From Escherichia coli (lineage in GTDB: Bacteria; Pseudomonadota; Gammaproteobacteria; Enterobacterales; Enterobacteriaceae), in assembly GCF_051903065.1 (NCBI RefSeq), contig NZ_CP178438.1: 64,000 nucleotides of DNA; one strand, 5' to 3'. The notes below the pieces were generated by a model. That model saw only the letters and a list, made by a program, of their open reading frames with translations. It was not told the DNA's origin and searched no databases. Numbering within the stretch: position 1 is the first letter of the stretch; each line of letters begins with the position of its first letter. A program made the translations under genes and the position numbers. Shown here in pieces: positions 20,353 through 51,665 of this stretch.

Positions 20353-20628
20353 GTGGCTTCTGTTTCTATCAGCTGTCCCTCCTGTTCAGCTACTGACGGG
20401 GTGGTGCGTAACGGCAAAAGCACCGCCGGACATCAGCGCTATCTCTGCTCTCACTGCCGTAAAACATGGCAACTGCAGTTCACTTACACCGCTTCTCAAC
20501 CCGGTACGCACCAGAAAATCATTGATATGGCCATGAATGGCGTTGGATGCCGGGCAACAGCCCGCATTATGGGCGTTGGCCTCAACACGATTTTACGTCA
20601 CTTAAAAAACTCAGGCCGCAGTCGGTAA
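20353..20628 (+). CDS. insA: IS1 InsA (transposition inhibitor, N-terminal part of InsAB' transposase)
   Basis: 91-aa [25 protein letters not shown]... recognised IS1 InsA. Confidence 0.9.
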
Positions 20629-21050
20629 CCTCGCGCATACAGCCGGGCAGTGACGTCATCGTCTGCGCGGAAATGGACGAACAGTGGGGCTATGTCGGGG
20701 CTAAATCGCGCCAGCGCTGGCTGTTTTACGCGTATGACAGGCTCCGGAAGACGGTTGTTGCGCACGTATTCGGTGAACGCACTATGGCGACGCTGGGGCG
20801 TCTTATGAGCCTGCTGTCACCCTTTGACGTGGTGATATGGATGACGGATGGCTGGCCGCTGTATGAATCCCGCCTGAAGGGAAAGCTGCACGTAATCAGC
20901 AAGCGATATACGCAGCGAATTGAGCGGCATAACCTGAATCTGAGGCAGCACCTGGCACGGCTGGGACGGAAGTCGCTGTCGTTCTCAAAATCGGTGGAGC
21001 TGCATGACAAAGTCATCGGGCATTATCTGAACATAAAACACTATCAATAA
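20547..21050 (+). CDS. insB: IS1 InsB reading frame (expressed as InsAB' via -1 frameshift)
   Basis: Overlapping -1 frame ORF; slippery A-run (TTAAAAAACTC) at about 20603 in the insA/insB overlap. Confidence 0.85.
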
Positions 21051-21560
21051 GTTGGAGTCATTACCGCCGCGACCGACCGCAAGCCACGAATAAGAACGAC
21101 GGCGAATTTCGAATCGTTACCTGATGCACTGGCTTCCCAGCGTTTGACCGTAGCGTTAAGTAAATCAACAAAAGCGATGTTCACCGCTTTTCGTCAAGTC
21201 GTGCCATTTGTCAGCCAGGATCGGGTCTTTACCCCGGATATTGCAGCATCGCAAAAATTCTTAGATGGATATGCTATAAATCAAAAATAAAATCTTTGTT
21301 GATTGTTTATCATAATATCCACAGATATGATAAATGATATCAATTTAATAATTTTCACTTAATGTGATTCCGGATAATTCGAAAGGCGCTGTGCTTTTCG
21401 GATTATTATTATCTGATTAAGATATTTGTCACGCCAGCCTTACTGGTTTATAAATGTCAATCATGATTCTTATAAATTATTTATTGCTGCTTTGGTTACC
21501 ATTACTTCGTAATAAGTAATGTATTTTTGATGGTTTAAACTATTTTTAAGGGACGGCATT

Positions 21561-22153
21561 ATGCGAGGGAAAATACCTAAAACGGAACTGCTGGTGACTT
21601 TTGAGGTCGTCGCACGTCATGAAAGTTATACCAGAGCGGCAGAGGAGTTAGCGTTAACCCAAAGTGCAGTATTCAGACAAGTAAGTGCGCTGGAGGAATT
21701 TTTACGTACTCCGTTATTTTCACACTCTAAAAAACGCATTTTTCTTAATGATACAGGGAAGTATTACCTGGGGATAGTAAAAGAAACATTAAATAAGCTG
21801 GAACGCGATACCAATACCATTATGACCTGGCAGCCTACGGTTCAGGTTATTGAACTTGCCGTTAATCCTACTTTTAGTACCCACTGGTTGATCCCAAATT
21901 TACATGAATTCACAAAGTTACATCCCGATATTATTGTTAATATTCATTCTTTAGCTAATAACGGCGATTTTCTTAATCGGGAGTACGATGCTGTCATTAT
22001 GCGCGAAAATTTTTGCGCGCCCTGGGCGGAAGTAGAATATCTCTTTGATGAGGAGATTTTGCCGGTATGCAGCGGCAGTTTGCTTGCAATGTCCGATCAA
22101 AAGCTGTCAGTGGCAGAACTGCTTACTGAGTTACCGCTTCTGCATCAAAGCAC
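21561..22153 (+). pseudogene. LysR-family transcriptional regulator gene, 3'-truncated by IS903-type element
   Basis: N-terminal LysR-type HTH (ESYTRAAEELALTQSAVFRQVSALEE) and start of substrate-binding domain; frame runs straight into the IS inverted repeat at 22154; about 200 codons of an expected roughly 300. Confidence 0.7.
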
Positions 22154-23210
22154 GGCTTTGTTGAATAAATCAGATTTCGGGTAAGTCTCCCCCGTAGCGG
22201 GTTGTGTTTTCAGGCAATACGCACGCTTTCAGGCATACCTGCTTTCGTCATTTTGTTCAGCGCTCGTACCAGGGCCATAGCCTCTGCAACCTGACCATCG
22301 TAGTCACGCAGTGTCAGTGAACCCCCGAACAGCTGTTTTACCCGGTACATCGCCGTTTCCGCTATCGAGCGACGGTTGTAATCTGTTGTCCATTTCCACC
22401 GCGCATTACTCCCGGTCATTCGCTGATTAGCCACTGCACGGTTACGGTCTGCATATTCACCGGGCCAGTAACCCGCACCTTTTCGGGGAGGGATAAGCGC
22501 GCTGATTTTCTTACGCCGCAGTTCATCGTGACATAGCCGGGTATCGTAAGCGCCATCGGCGGCGGCTGACCTGATTTTCCGGTGGGTTTGCCGGATTAAC
22601 CCGGGGAAGGCCTCTGAGTCCGTAACGTTGTTCAGCGACAGGTCAGCGCAGATGATTTCATGTGTTTTACTGTCAACGGCGAGATGCAGCTTACGCCAGA
22701 TACGGCGGCGTTCCTGGCCATGCTTTTTGACTTTCCACTCGCCTTCACCGAAGACCTTCAGCCCGGTGGAATCAATTACCAGGTGTGCGATTTCACCCCG
22801 GGTGGGCGTTTTGAAACTGACATTAACCGACTTTGCCCGCCTGCTGACACAGCTGTAATCCGGGCAGCGTAGCGGAACGTTCATCAGAGAAAAAATGGAA
22901 TCAATAAAGCCCTGCGCAGCGCGCAGGGTCAGCCTGAATACGCGTTTAATGACCAGCACAGTCGTGATGGCAAGGTCAGAATAGCGCTGAGGTCTGCCTC
23001 GTGAAGAAGGTGTTGCTGACTCATACCAGGCCTGAATAGCTTCATCATCCAGCCAGAAAGTTATGGAGCCACGGTTGATGAGGGCTTTATTGTAGGTGGG
23101 CCAGTTGGTGATTTTGAACTTTTGCTTTGCCACGGAACGGTCTGCGTTGTCGGGAAGATACGTGATCTGATCCTTCAACTCAGCAAAAGTTCGATTTATT
23201 CAACAAAGCC
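22154..23210 (-). mobile_element. IS903-type insertion sequence (IS5 family), 1057 bp, no target-site duplication
   Basis: 18-bp terminal inverted repeats GGCTTTGTTGAATAAATC at both ends; single transposase ORF; flanks TCAAAGCAC vs ATTTATCAG do not match. Confidence 0.85.
22210..23133 (-). CDS. IS903-type transposase (DDE, IS5 family)
   Basis: ORF ending ...KAGMPESVRIA, recognised as IS903 transposase; start placed at the GTG giving 307 aa (longest ORF extends to 23178). Confidence 0.85.
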   Translation of the reverse strand: MAKQKFKITNWPTYNKALINRGSITFWLDDEAIQAWYESATPSSRGRPQRYSDLAITTVLVIKRVFRLTLRAAQGFIDSIFSLMNVPLRCPDYSCVSRRAKSVNVSFKTPTRGEIAHLVIDSTGLKVFGEGEWKVKKHGQERRRIWRKLHLAVDSKTHEIICADLSLNNVTDSEAFPGLIRQTHRKIRSAAADGAYDTRLCHDELRRKKISALIPPRKGAGYWPGEYADRNRAVANQRMTGSNARWKWTTDYNRRSIAETAMYRVKQLFGGSLTLRDYDGQVAEAMALVRALNKMTKAGMPESVRIA

Positions 23211-34121: not shown

Positions 34122-35165
34122 ATGAGCGTGATGTTTGATCCAGACACGGCGATTTATCCTTTCCCCCCGAAGCCGACGCCGTTAAGCATTGATGAAAAAG
34201 CGTATTACCGCGAGAAGATAAAACGTCTGCTAAAAGAACGTAATGCGGTGATGGTTGCCCACTACTATACCGATCCCGAAATTCAACAACTGGCAGAAGA
34301 AACCGGTGGCTGTATTTCTGATTCTTTGGAAATGGCGCGCTTCGGTGCAAAGCATCCCGCTTCTACGTTGTTAGTCGCTGGGGTGAGATTTATGGGAGAA
34401 ACCGCCAAAATTCTCAGTCCGGAAAAAACAATTCTGATGCCGACACTTCAGGCTGAATGTTCACTGGATCTCGGCTGCCCTGTTGAAGAATTTAACGCAT
34501 TTTGCGATGCCCATCCCGATCATACTGTCGTCGTCTACGCCAACACTTCTGCTGCGGTAAAAGCGCGGGCAGATTGGGTGGTAACTTCAAGCATTGCCGT
34601 CGAACTTATTGATCATCTGGATAGTTTGGGTGAAAAAATCATCTGGGCACCCGACAAACATCTGGGGCGTTACGTGCAAAAACAGACGGGCGCAGACATT
34701 TTATGCTGGCAGGGTGCCTGCATTGTGCATGATGAATTTAAGACTCAGGCGTTAACCCGCTTGCAAGAAGAATACCCGGATGCTGCCATACTGGTGCATC
34801 CAGAATCACCACAAGCTATTGTCGATATGGCGGATGCGGTCGGTTCCACCAGTCAACTGATCGCTGCTGCAAAAACATTGCCACATCAGCGGCTTATCGT
34901 GGCAACCGATCGGGGCATTTTCTACAAAATGCAGCAGGCGGTGCCAGATAAAGAGTTACTGGAAGCACCAACCGCGGGTGAGGGCGCAACCTGCCGCAGC
35001 TGCGCGCATTGTCCGTGGATGGCCATGAATGGCCTTCAGGCTATCGCTGAGGCATTAGAACAGGAAGGAAGTAATCACGAGGTTCATGTTGATGAGAGGC
35101 TGCGAGAGAGGGCGCTGGTGCCGCTCAATCGTATGCTGGATTTTGCGGCTACACTACGTGGATAA
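34122..35165 (+). CDS. nadA: Quinolinate synthase
   Basis: 347-aa ORF, recognised NadA sequence. Confidence 0.97.
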
Positions 35166-35202
35166 CGAATAATAAGGCGTAACGTTACGCTTTGGGGGAA
35201 AG

Positions 35203-35922
35203 ATGGATTTTTTTAGTGTGCAGAATATCCTGGTACATATACCAATAGGGGCAGGCGGTTATGATCTCTCATGGATCGAAGCGGTAGGCACGATCGCCGG
35301 GTTGCTGTGTATTGGCCTTGCCAGTCTGGAGAAGATCAGCAACTACTTCTTTGGCCTGATCAACGTCACCTTGTTTGGCATTATTTTCTTTCAGATTCAG
35401 CTGTATGCCAGCCTGCTATTACAGGTGTTTTTCTTTGCCGCGAATATTTACGGTTGGTATGCGTGGTCGCGACAAACCAGTCAGAACGAGGCGGAGTTGA
35501 AAATTCGCTGGTTGCCATTGCCGAAGGCGCTAAGCTGGTTGGCGGTTTGCGTTGTTTCGATTGGTCTGATGACGGTATTTATCAATCCGGTGTTTGCATT
35601 TTTGACCCGCGTGGCAGTCATGATCATGCAAGCATTAGGATTACAGGTTGTGATGCCTGAACTGCAACCGGACGCTTTCCCGTTCTGGGATTCATGCATG
35701 ATGGTGTTATCTATCGTGGCAATGATTCTGATGACGCGTAAGTATGTGGAAAACTGGCTGTTGTGGGTGATTATTAACGTGATTAGCGTCGTTATTTTTG
35801 CACTTCAGGGCGTTTACGCCATGTCTCTGGAGTACATCATCCTGACCTTTATTGCGCTCAACGGCAGCCGGATGTGGATCAACAGCGCACGTGAAAGAGG
35901 CTCACGCGCGCTGTCCCATTAA
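35203..35922 (+). CDS. pnuC: Nicotinamide riboside transporter PnuC
   Basis: 239-aa polytopic membrane ORF directly downstream of nadA. Confidence 0.95.
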
Positions 35923-36860
35923 TGGTGATGATGTGAATGGCCAGACACCCCTTCATTCAGGTGGCAGTCTGGCCCATGACAAGGTTGATATTCCATCTGA
36001 ATGGTGGCGTGCTCAATCTGATAGTGATCCATCAGGTAGTGTTGGATCTGATCCAACAAGGCATCGTGATCGTGTGGTGGGATCACCTGCACATGCAGCG
36101 TTATCACCGGCTTCTCGCCTACCATCCATACATGTACATGGTGCACATTGCGGACTTCTGGGATTTCCCGGCACATACGACGCTTCAGTTCAGCGATATC
36201 CAGCGATACCGGTGCACCTTCAAGTAATTCATTCACGCTATCTTTCAACAGTCGCCACGCGCTACGCAGAACCAGAAGCGACACCAGTATCGAGAGAATG
36301 GGGTCAGCAGGTGTCCAGCCGGTCCAGATAATAATCAACGCGGCAATAATAGCCCCAACCGAACCCAGCAGGTCCCCGAGCACATGCAGTGCCGCTGCTC
36401 GTACGTTGAGGTTTTTCTCTTCGCTGCCGTGATGAAGTAACCAGAAAGAAAGTATATTTGCCAGCAACCCAGCCACGGCAATTGCCATCATCATGCCGCC
36501 CTCGACCGGACGCGGCGTGCGGAAGCGTTCTATCGCCTCCCAGACAATCAAAATGGTAATTACCACGAGGGCGATGGCATTCACAAACGCCGCGAGCGTG
36601 GTCAGTCTTAGCCAACCGAAAGTGTGGCGAATGGTGGGAGGACGACGTGAAAATTGCACGGCGAGTAGGGCGAAAAGCAGGGCGGCAGTATCGGTCAACA
36701 TATGACCCGCATCGGCCAGCAAAGCCAGAGAACCAGAAAGAAAACCACCAATGACTTCTATCAGCATAAACCCGGCAGTCACGCCGAAAGCATACAACAA
36801 GCGACGAGCATTATTATCTTCTGGCAGGTGTGAGGACGTGTGTGAGTGTGAGTGCACCAT
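35919..36860 (-). CDS. zitB: Zinc efflux transporter ZitB (cation diffusion facilitator)
   Basis: 313-aa ORF with His-rich N- and C-termini (MVHSHSH...GHSHHHH); 3' end overlaps pnuC 3' end by 4 bp. Confidence 0.95.
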
Positions 36861-36973
36861 GACGAGTCATCCCTTAATTATTCTCACTTAACTTTATGAC
36901 ATCATACTGCTTTTAGAAGGGAAAAATTAAAAGGGAGAGACTCCGCTCTCCCATTATTGGCTATTTTGCAGGG

Positions 36974-37354
36974 TTACTGCGTGGTACCGTCGGTTTTGGT
37001 ATCGACATCATTATTGATGCCATCACCGGTTTGTACCTTTTTATTGATATCCGGGCAGCGACCATCTTTGCACATGGTGTTCTTGTGCTCTTCATCTTTG
37101 GTCATGCCGTCATTGTTCATTGAAGAACCATCCGAATGCAGCATTGTGCCGCCAGAACCGGTATTTACCCCGTTATTGTCGACGTTATTTGGCGCAACAT
37201 TTTCACGGGCGTCAGGGGCTACCTGGCCCGCATCAGCGGCGGCGTTTGCCTGGCCGTTATTAGTTTGCGCTCCGCTATCGGCAGCCAGTGCGGCACCGCT
37301 GGCAAGGCTTAGAGTGGCAGTCAGAAATAATGTGGCCAGTTTTGTCATTTTCAT
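36974..37354 (-). CDS. ybgS: Secreted low-complexity protein YbgS
   Basis: 126-aa ORF with signal peptide and Asn/Gly/Asp-rich body. Confidence 0.85.
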
Positions 37355-48597: not shown

Positions 48598-49656
48598 ATG
48601 CTGGAACTGAATTTTTCCCAGACGTTGGGCAACCATTGCCTGACTATTAATGAAACGCTGCCCGCCAATGGCATCACTGCTATCTTTGGCGTCTCCGGTG
48701 CCGGAAAAACTTCGCTGATTAACGCCATCAGTGGACTGACGCGCCCGCAAAAAGGGAGGATTGTCCTCAATGGTCGGGTACTAAATGATGCCGAAAAAGG
48801 TATCTGCCTGACGCCAGAAAAGCGTCGCGTTGGCTATGTTTTTCAGGATGCGCGGCTGTTTCCGCATTACAAAGTGCGTGGCAATCTGCGCTACGGCATG
48901 GCGAAAAGCATGGTCGATCAGTTCGATAAGCTGGTGGCGCTTTTAGGCATTGAACCGTTGCTTGACCGTTTACCAGGCAGCCTGTCCGGAGGCGAAAAAC
49001 AGCGCGTAGCGATTGGGCGGGCTTTGCTGACGGCACCAGAATTGCTGTTGCTGGATGAACCGCTGGCGTCACTGGATATTCCGCGTAAACGCGAACTGTT
49101 GCCTTATCTGCAACGTCTGACGCGGGAAATCAACATCCCGATGTTGTATGTCAGCCATTCGCTGGATGAGATCCTCCATCTGGCAGACAGAGTGATGGTA
49201 CTGGAAAACGGTCAGGTGAAAGCCTTTGGCGCGCTGGAAGAAGTCTGGGGTAGTAGCGTGATGAATCCGTGGCTGCCGAAAGAGCAACAAAGTAGCATTC
49301 TGAAAGTGACGGTACTTGAGCATCATCCGCATTACGCGATGACTGCGCTGGCGCTGGGCGATCAGCATTTGTGGGTCAATAAGCTGGACGAACCGCTGCA
49401 AGCTGCGCTACGTATCCGCATTCAGGCTTCCGATGTTTCTCTGGTTTTACAACCGCCGCAGCAAACCAGCATTCGTAACGTATTGCGGGCAAAAGTTGTT
49501 AATAGTTATGACGACAACGGCCAGGTAGAAGTGGAGCTGGAAGTCGGCGGTAAAACGCTGTGGGCGCGTATCAGCCCGTGGGCCAGGGATGAACTGGCGA
49601 TCAAACCTGGCCTGTGGCTGTACGCGCAAATTAAAAGTGTGTCGATAACCGCCTGA
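48598..49656 (+). CDS. modC: Molybdate ABC transporter ATPase
   Basis: 352-aa ORF with Walker [10 protein letters not shown] and ABC signature LSGGEKQR. Confidence 0.95.
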
Positions 49657-50475
49657 TTAAATCAGGTGGCTATAAATGAACTGGGCAATGCTGTCGGTGG
49701 TGTTATCACCAATCACAATGTTGGCGCGCGCTTTTACCGCGTCATCGGCGTTGCCCATCGCCACGCCTGTACCAGCGGCCTCCAGCATACTGATATCATT
49801 AAAGTTATCGCCGAACGCCACGACGTTTTCCATCGACCAGCCTTGCGCCTCAACCCATTTCGTCAAACGTTTACCTTTGCTGTTGCCGCCGCGTGCAATA
49901 TCAACCTGATCGTGCCAGGACCATTCACACTCCAGTCCCAGTTCATGTTCGACATGCTTACCAAAATGCTGCAATTGCGGCAGGTCATCGTGCGTCAGGG
50001 CGAACTTCCATACGGCGTTAACTTGTTGCGCCGTTTCAGCCAGAGAAGCGACTTGTGTGAAAGTCGGACGCTGTTCCGGCGGCAGGGTTTGCGCCCAGTT
50101 AGACGTGCGAATGACATGCCCGGTCGGGTGCTCATAGACCATTGCATCATCCACATACATCAGACCGTGAATGTGGTGTTCATTCAGCATCTCAATGAGT
50201 TGCAGGGCTTTATTAACGGGCATTGGGTCCGCTTCCAGCACGGTTTTTGCATGATAATCATACAAATAGGTGCCATTACAGCAAATAGCAGGTGTATCCA
50301 GCGCCAGCGCCTGATAAAAAGGATGAATAGCGACGTGATGGCGACCTGTGACGATGATTAATTGATAGCCTGCTTCGCGAGCGCGGGCCAGGGCTTCTAT
50401 CGATGAAGGAAGCAGGGTCTTTTTCGGGGTCAATAAGGTGCCGTCTAAGTCGAGAGCAATCACGCGTGTGGTCAT
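49657..50475 (-). CDS. ybhA: HAD-family sugar-phosphate/pyridoxal-phosphate phosphatase
   Basis: Start placed at MTTRVIALDLDGTLL (HAD motif I); the ORF track extends 34 codons upstream. Confidence 0.9.
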   Translation of the reverse strand: MTTRVIALDLDGTLLTPKKTLLPSSIEALARAREAGYQLIIVTGRHHVAIHPFYQALALDTPAICCNGTYLYDYHAKTVLEADPMPVNKALQLIEMLNEHHIHGLMYVDDAMVYEHPTGHVIRTSNWAQTLPPEQRPTFTQVASLAETAQQVNAVWKFALTHDDLPQLQHFGKHVEHELGLECEWSWHDQVDIARGGNSKGKRLTKWVEAQGWSMENVVAFGDNFNDISMLEAAGTGVAMGNADDAVKARANIVIGDNTTDSIAQFIYSHLI

Positions 50476-51625: not shown

Positions 51626-51665
51626 CCGCTGATTTACCCGGCGCAGCCTCTCCTGCGCCGGTGTA

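Follow-up and report, generated by a model that had tools for sequence, protein, structure and literature searches.

Introduction

For Escherichia coli, Lillo & Krakauer (2007, PMC2174442) counted 58 convergent overlaps and found the tetranucleotides CTAA, TTAA, CTAG and TTAG to be behind the sudden rise in overlap numbers at 4 bases, noting in the same work that the terminators of such overlapping convergent genes must lie in the coding sequence (CDS) of the partner. ExcludonFinder (2025, PMC12288877) has since listed 165 convergent excludons in strain MG1655, among them pnuC-zitB, nei-abrB and modC-ybhA as well as mscL-arfA; for 146 of the 165, predicted terminators were located inside the transcription unit of the partner, and validation by p19 capture of double-stranded RNA failed for convergent pairs generally. 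Further work concerns the RNA ends themselves. Rho-terminated E. coli transcripts were shown to end at stable stem-loops that lack U-tracts and protect against exonucleases (Dar & Sorek 2018, PMC6061677), and many convergent E. coli pairs were reported to end at bidirectional sites that are neither intrinsic-looking nor Rho-dependent, where a nascent stem-loop fixes the position of the collision (Ju/Wang/Liu, bioRxiv 10.1101/2022.10.23.513370).

The window analysed here is a stretch of 64,000 nucleotides from an E. coli chromosome (contig NZ_CP178438.1, RefSeq assembly GCF_051903065.1). A sequence-only reading of it had pointed out that pnuC and zitB overlap by 4 bp at their stop codons, as do nei and abrB, and had reasoned that such an arrangement leaves no room for terminators, so that transcriptional interference or antisense 3' untranslated regions are possible. 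Both pairs have both stops inside one of the four tetranucleotides (the YTAR class) and are exact instances of the 4-base overlaps described by Lillo & Krakauer, with TTAA at pnuC/zitB and CTAG at nei/abrB and no difference in kind. Neither the overlaps nor the class are new, as they are known from the K-12 annotation, the 2007 analysis and the published excludon list. As in other convergent excludons, the pnuC and zitB transcripts overlap on opposite strands, which is obligatory since the coding sequences overlap; the likeness is one of overlap, and mutually exclusive expression or RNase III processing would be conjecture for this pair. What goes beyond Lillo & Krakauer is the family-wide conservation of one junction and the identity of the hairpins embedded in it. 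The sole addition made here is accordingly a conserved and covarying pair of hairpins, embedded in two coding tails and with a putative role in forming RNA 3' ends.

Gene arrangement in the window

Both pnuC and zitB are genuine protein-coding genes, the two ORFs being annotated, encoding full Pfam domains and being conserved in 80 species. Their 4-bp overlap was borne out by the sequence, by the ORFs and by the RefSeq annotation, both in this strain and in K-12 MG1655, where the identical overlap is annotated (pnuC 783166-783885, zitB 783882-784823). The overlap of nei and abrB was found where it had been placed, as a CTAG that is shared in the same manner in the RefSeq annotation of this strain and of K-12. 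It had been suggested that re-annotation of start or stop positions might remove these overlaps; since the sequence itself dictates where a stop codon lies, re-annotation cannot abolish a convergent overlap and that test does not apply. A third tight convergent pair, modC/ybhA, is absent from the sequence-only reading and abuts with zero spacer. The window holds eight convergent junctions, with two overlaps and one abutment, a proportion that is unremarkable.

Stop-start overlaps had also been listed for sdhD/sdhA, cydX/ybgE, modA/modB and gtrB/gtrC, and the junction sequences show all four to be real, with a length of one base each. According to junction sequences and annotation, the genes lie in co-directional operon contexts with the downstream start overlapping the upstream stop. 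Further overlaps that had gone unlisted are those of sucC/sucD, which is of the same type, ybgC/tolQ and ybgO/ybgP (4 bases each), sdhC/sdhD and galM/galK (7 bases each), and pxpC/pxpA (11 bases). Overlaps of this 1- or 4-base stop-start kind in complex-encoding operons are the textbook setting of translational coupling (Huber et al. 2023, PMC10666635). Like such operons, sdhD/sdhA, sucC/sucD, cydX/ybgE, modA/modB, ybgC/tolQ and the gtr pair contain TGATG, TAATG or GTGA and mostly encode subunits of one complex, which makes them candidates for coupling. The coordinates of all features are collected in Table 1.

Table 1. Features of the pnuC/zitB junction and of other tight gene junctions in the window (positions are those of the window).
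Feature	Position	Strand	Description
pnuC CDS	35203-35922	+	239 aa, nicotinamide riboside transporter; ORF list and RefSeq; last gene of the nadA-pnuC pair, which is repressed by NadR; 3' end TCC CAT TAA
zitB CDS	35919-36860	-	313 aa, CDF zinc exporter; ORF list and RefSeq; 3' end CAT CAC CAT TAA
Shared TTAA of pnuC/zitB	35919-35922	both	pnuC TAA at 35920-35922; zitB TAA is the complement of 35919-35921
Hairpin I2	35882-35914	-	pnuC tail codons N227-S238 (last 12 codons); 14 pairs, 5-nt loop, -23.2 kcal/mol; from inverted repeat and folding
Hairpin I3	35939-35974	+	zitB tail codons; outer stem GGCCAGAC/GUCUGGCC and inner stem; -16.9 kcal/mol
Candidate Rho-loading region, C-rich/G-poor	35681-35818	-	101-238 nt past zitB stop; C/G 1.9-2.75; composition scan only
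Candidate Rho-loading region, C>G, inside antisense zitB	36083-36280	+	161-358 nt past pnuC stop; C/G up to 1.9; composition scan only
Shared CTAG of nei/abrB	1791-1794	both	nei 1003-1794 (+), abrB 1791-2837 (-)
modC/ybhA convergent abutment	49656/49657		zero spacer; modC 48598-49656 (+), ybhA 49657-50475 (-); ORF coordinates, K-12 annotation also examined
modC/ybhA palindrome	49645-49673	both	9-pair hairpin containing both stops; z -3.3 (plus), -4.1 (minus)
sdhD/sdhA 1-base overlap	10974	+	TGATG
sucC/sucD 1-base overlap	19248		same type; not in the sequence-only reading
cydX/ybgE 1-base overlap	26784		TGATG
modA/modB 1-base overlap	47906		TAATG
gtrB-like/gtrC-like 1-base overlap	63873	-	TAATG

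Conservation of the pnuC/zitB junction

The junction was found in 5423 of 5426 complete E. coli genomes, and the 4-kb stretch around it matched 5425 of the 5426, with 100% identity to strain 23CRST027 (NZ_AP045789.1). Between positions -80 and +100 relative to the junction, the window does not differ from K-12 MG1655. The whole window is collinear with NZ_AP045789.1 except for one mismatch and one 47-bp copy-number difference beside IS903B; the latter was considered as a tandem repeat in the window, but Tandem Repeats Finder finds none there, and NZ_AP045789.1 simply has one extra copy.

To this we added 80 species-representative Enterobacteriaceae genomes with a close PnuC. In all 80, zitB is the convergent neighbour of pnuC, and the two genes stand tail-to-tail within -7 to +3 nt (spacing of -4 in 68 species, 0 in nine, -7 in two and +3 in one). 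The 3' end of pnuC is TTAA, TTAG, CTAA or CTAG in 76 of 81 sequences, and both stops vary between TAA and TAG with the geometry kept. The tight junction is stable across strains and species and is no accident of a single strain.

Two hairpins in the coding tails

The TTAA is flanked by two separate GC-rich hairpins, I2 and I3, which lie 24 nt apart and each fall in the C-terminal tail of the partner gene. Both are encoded wholly by codons past the Pfam domains: in PnuC the NMN_transporter domain comprises residues 23-226, which places the tail of residues 227-239 outside it, and in ZitB the Cation_efflux (21-213) and ZT_dimer (227-290) domains are followed by a His-rich tail (291-313). On minus-strand RNA, I2 begins 4 nt past the zitB stop and has a fold z of -3.1 relative to shuffles; its energy of -23.2 kcal/mol on that strand compares with -19.1 kcal/mol on the plus strand. 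After I2 comes UGAUCCAC, a UGUUGAU-like sequence that is not a U-tract. On plus-strand RNA, I3 begins 17 nt past the pnuC stop and is followed by AUGACAAG, again without a U-tract. We propose that I2 forms the 3' end of the zitB transcript and I3 that of the pnuC transcript.

With respect to intrinsic terminators, both hairpins thus present a GC stem-loop shortly after a stop and lack the U-run that should follow. When the surroundings of the three tight junctions were scanned for canonical terminators (consensus of stem plus U-tract), no junction gave a hit, and the sole terminator detected was that of ybgS, upstream of zitB; an Rfam E-value search of positions 35000-37100 gave no relevant match. 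There is a likeness to the stem-loops of Dar & Sorek, as I2 and I3 are predicted to be stable, are free of U-tracts, come shortly after a stop and have C-rich sequence downstream. Unlike those stem-loops, they lie inside the CDS of another gene and are constrained by that CDS. The claim that the convergent overlap leaves no room for terminators is refuted, since the signals sit in the partner's CDS, as two conserved hairpins at the TTAA and as one junction-centred hairpin at modC/ybhA.

Proposed formation of the 3' ends

Our preferred explanation, to which we assign a probability of roughly 0.55, is that pnuC and zitB are an old and fixed tail-to-tail pair with partner-embedded 3'-end hairpins, Rho termination downstream of these, and trimming by exonucleases. 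As there is no spacer between the two genes, each transcript must enter the other gene, and the 3'-end signals would be placed within the codons of the partner's C-terminal tail. The ribosome would depart at the stop codon, and the untranslated antisense RNA would then be terminated downstream, mainly by Rho that loads onto C-rich stretches at a distance of 100-350 nt. From there, 3'-to-5' exonucleases would trim the RNA back to the hairpin, which would set and shield the mature 3' end. The two mRNAs would then necessarily overlap, sense against antisense, over a short stretch, which fits the term convergent excludon. Judged by the base composition downstream of I2 and I3, it is probably Rho that finishes termination there. 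Any regulatory effect of such an overlap is likewise putative; we found no published demonstration that expression of one gene of the pnuC/zitB pair depresses the other.

Published transcription and termination data

In total RNA-seq of K-12, sense/antisense values of 24.0/12.8 RPM were reported for zitB, 40.9/2.0 RPM for pnuC and 19.4/18.7 RPM for ybhA (Huang et al., PMC7373196, Table S1c). Read-through from pnuC into zitB therefore appears greater than the reverse: RNA of the pnuC strand runs far into zitB, and RNA of the zitB strand is scarce in pnuC, which agrees with I2 being much the stronger hairpin and with the richer C-tract in that direction. An internal promoter could instead be the source of the antisense signal in zitB; a scan of the antisense strand of zitB for a consensus-like one found none. 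In the same study, p19 capture yielded a 22-bp duplex of RNase III type from within zitB, and in the rnc mutants the sense and antisense reads of zitB both drop, which is uninformative. The antisense RNA in zitB, the listing of the pair in the excludome and the lack of a canonical terminator at the junction all favour the earlier inference of an antisense 3' overlap; the reason once given for it, that there is no room for terminators, is the part that fell.

At the other two tight junctions, the mapped signals lie well inside the partner genes. At nei/abrB, a bicyclomycin-sensitive (Rho) region was mapped at K-12 position 747036(+), which is 310 nt beyond the end of nei and on the strand opposite to abrB, and at modC/ybhA a Term-seq end lies 769 nt past the modC stop, within ybhA (Adams et al., PMC7815308); we found no convincing hairpin at the latter end, antisense to ybhA (window position ~50425). 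Of the Rho regions mapped in that study, half have an antisense orientation relative to genes, and few are found at 50 nt or less from a stop codon. For pnuC/zitB, no Rho region is listed in its tables, and no mapped 3' ends were found in the Adams 2021 Term-seq tables or the TERMITe supplements.

The same evidence bears on a reading in which the hairpins are the termination elements themselves, acting as weak non-canonical intrinsic terminators or as pause sites that position head-on collisions of RNA polymerases, with Rho and trimming not involved. The bidirectional sites introduced above lend it a precedent, and pnuC/zitB is like overlapping bidirectional terminators (Ju et al. 2019; Wang et al., bioRxiv 10.1101/2022.10.23.513370) in being a convergent pair with non-intrinsic-looking hairpins at its boundary. 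I2 is moreover very stable, with its 14 pairs and -23.2 kcal/mol ahead of the UGUUGAU-like sequence, and the 2.0 RPM of zitB-strand RNA in pnuC, set against 24.0 RPM of zitB sense RNA, suggests efficient stopping near the junction. At modC/ybhA, a single hairpin is centred on the junction and resembles the bidirectional type more. At pnuC/zitB, however, there is one hairpin per direction, in the form of two distinct elements 24 nt apart and no single shared one, and both genes are weakly expressed, so that polymerase collisions would be rare. The absence of a U-tract after both hairpins and the blank terminator scan at the junction also speak against it, and the substantial plus-strand RNA through zitB argues against I3 halting the polymerase efficiently. 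On balance we regard direct termination at the hairpins as unlikely.

Constraint on the paired positions

The pairing of both hairpins was followed through the alignment of 81 sequences, 80 of them distinct. In I3, the outer stem is 86% paired, and five of its eight pairs are altered on both sides. The three most variable pairs link third codon positions of zitB (Gly/Gly, Ser/Pro and Val/Asp), and the Gly/Gly pair occurs as GC in 31 sequences, CG in 17, UG in nine, GU in seven and AU in four. Because these most variable pairs join synonymous third positions, constraint on the protein cannot account for their covariation. RNAalifold recovered I3 on the 63 gap-free species, with four of seven pairs compensatory; on the full plus-strand alignment of 81 sequences it predicted no structure, as indels in the His-rich tail break that alignment. 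The covariation score of the whole structure was 0.156 compared to a shuffled mean of 0.103, with none of 500 column shuffles reaching 0.156 and slid partners giving at most 0.072. For I2, minus-strand RNAalifold recovered a core of seven pairs, all of which are present in 73 of the 81 sequences while the other eight each miss one; its variation consists chiefly of conservation and one-sided wobble changes, and two-sided covariation is scarce.

A second measure was obtained by synonymous recoding. In almost every species the native tails fold more stably than their recodings; the median z is -1.7 in the pnuC and zitB tails alike, and 47% of the species reach p <= 0.05, values that are not independent of each other as the species are related. 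In control windows from the interior of pnuC and zitB, the median z ranged from -0.56 to +0.79, and 2-17% fell beyond -1.64.

These results weigh on a neutral account, in which stop-codon drift and genome compaction produced the overlap and the palindromes arise incidentally from conserved peptide tails (SARERGSRA in PnuC and GPDC...SGH in ZitB) with no function in RNA. The overlap as such would fit, the 4-base stop/stop arrangement being the commonest convergent overlap and the phase frequencies agreeing with a model of stop-codon mutation (Lillo & Krakauer 2007, PMC2174442). The PnuC tail is indeed strongly conserved as a peptide, and ExcludonFinder by construction calls any expressed pair with overlapping CDS (PMC12288877). 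Covariation between two synonymous third positions is, however, not what a peptide by-product would give, and neither is the greater hairpin stability of native codons over synonymous recodings in the 3'-terminal windows only. Replacements of R by H in the PnuC tail, moreover, are of a type that preserves a minus-strand wobble pair. The neutral account thus seems to us rather improbable.

Strand on which the hairpins act

The recoding z-scores are alike for the sense and antisense strands, and I3 in E. coli is even marginally more stable on the minus strand; folding energy was accordingly set aside as an indecisive criterion for the strand of action, and the asymmetry of wobble pairs was used instead. 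The I2 core contains 50 U-G/G-U wobbles when read as minus-strand RNA, all of which would turn into A-C mismatches in plus-strand RNA; a counter-signal comes from some plus-strand wobbles, one pair being G-U in 22 sequences. For I3, 61 wobbles on the plus strand stand against 15 A-C. For I2, variation within E. coli also favours the minus strand, as one lineage carries CCGGAT/ATCCGG in place of the window's CCAGAC/GTCTGG, with all pairs retained on the minus strand only. By this asymmetry, I2 fits the zitB transcript and I3 the pnuC transcript, each just past the stop of the gene it would serve.

A comparison with one PnuC that lacks a zitB neighbour points the same way. The homologous-protein search for PnuC gave only relatives of at least 86% identity, and a more distant one (51% identical), obtained from a representative search and contig look-ups, is encoded in the context nadA-pnuC-aroG without zitB. 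It has neither the ERGSRALSH tail nor I2, a contrast that weakly supports I2 serving the zitB transcript, this being the single informative locus, as another contig ended before any downstream gene.

That each hairpin might act in the mRNA of its own encoding gene, for example by delaying the ribosome ahead of termination or by shielding the message itself, and not on the partner transcript, agrees with the ability of both to form on both strands and with the similar sense and antisense z-scores, but is very improbable given that a transcript ending at a hairpin which precedes the stop codon of its own gene would be a non-stop mRNA, that the wobbles of I2 and I3 favour the opposite strand, and that the I2-encoding tail is missing in the one relative found without a downstream zitB.

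Significance

We found no earlier description in the literature of a pair of embedded, covarying hairpins at pnuC/zitB. Under the preferred reading, in which the 3'-end hairpins are embedded in the partner, the junction is a checkable example of how a genome handles a missing spacer, with the 3'-end hairpins of each gene placed in the coding tail of its neighbour and maintained by compensatory synonymous changes. A further-reaching suggestion, which we put forward tentatively and at slightly below even odds, is that the tails of PnuC and ZitB are dual-coding and are kept partly for the hairpin that ends or stabilises the mRNA of the other gene, so that a reciprocal 3'-end module would lock the two genes together across the sampled Enterobacteriaceae. 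If true, this would explain why an importer of NAD precursors and a zinc exporter have remained convergent neighbours whose ends are no more than a few bases apart. If the role of the hairpins is confirmed, synonymous sites at gene ends can be selected for the RNA of a neighbouring gene, terminator finders that skip coding sequences overlook such elements, and the mRNA of a gene in such a pair can change when its partner is recoded or deleted.

Convergent junctions and the upstream side of zitB

The junction between pnuC and zitB is spanned by a perfect 10-base palindrome, CCATTAATGG (35916-35925), which arises because PnuC and ZitB each have a terminal histidine (CAT) before TAA. The palindrome is not conserved in other genera and is therefore probably incidental. 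On the other side of zitB, the canonical terminator 3' of ybgS agrees with a primary 3' end that Term-seq maps in K-12, at 67 nt before zitB begins, and zitB transcription is thus likely driven by its own promoter within the 113-nt spacer.

A PnuC without zitB downstream was found in a relative with the order nadA-pnuC-aroG and a spacer of 224 nt (L087:2501-3460, Logan ERR3675749; 51% identity). The tail of this protein reads VVAARKIQYPP, and the second arm of the hairpin that is encoded in the pnuC tail here, and proposed to form the 3' end of the zitB transcript, is missing.

The sequence-only reading had listed pnuC/zitB and nei/abrB as convergent overlaps; modC/ybhA, absent from that list, is a third tight convergent pair. 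A hairpin of 9 pairs (49645-49673) is centered exactly on this junction on both strands, with z = -3.3 and -4.1 on the two strands. In K-12, antisense RNA of ybhA equals the sense RNA (19.4/18.7 RPM sense/antisense in total RNA-seq; PMC7373196), and a Term-seq 3' end on the modC strand lies 769 nt into ybhA, corresponding to about 50425 here (PMC7815308), where no convincing hairpin was found.

Two other short convergent spacers, pgl/ybhD and that between the hypothetical gene and the gtrC-like gene, each hold a single GC hairpin, which could serve both directions. The latter hairpin is preceded by A6, equal to U6 on the minus strand.

Features of the region
Feature	Position	Strand	Context
IS1	20353-21050		between sucD and cydA
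LysR-family gene, truncated	21561-22160		between sucD and cydA
IS903B	22210-23178		between sucD and cydA
Terminator, GGGAGAG...CTCTCCC and U-tract	36933-36952	-	3' of ybgS
modC	48598-49656	+	zero spacer to ybhA (TGA/TTA)
ybhA	49657-50475	-	zero spacer to modC
Hairpin CCGGCGCAG-CCTCTC-CTGCGCCGG	51638-51661		pgl/ybhD spacer
Truncated tyrosine integrase, IS481 transposase, hypothetical gene, DUF6056 protein (gtrC-like), family-2 glycosyltransferase (gtrB-like)	59367-64000		adjoining ybhC
Hairpin GGTGGC-CTA-GCCACC	62244-62258		hypothetical/gtrC-like gene spacer

Gene content and mobile elements

The longest abrB ORF begins at 2882 (363 aa); the start annotated in RefSeq and K-12 is 2837 (348 aa). 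In K-12 tables the sucD-cydA interval is occupied by mngR, whereas insertion sequences flank a truncated LysR-family gene here (20353-23178), and the region is therefore remodelled by insertion sequences. The best-matching public record, NZ_AP045789.1, carries the 47-bp segment at about 23164-23210 of the window in one copy more than the window does, and no tandem repeat is present at that position of the window. Taken together, the genes adjoining ybhC resemble what is left of a serotype-converting prophage.
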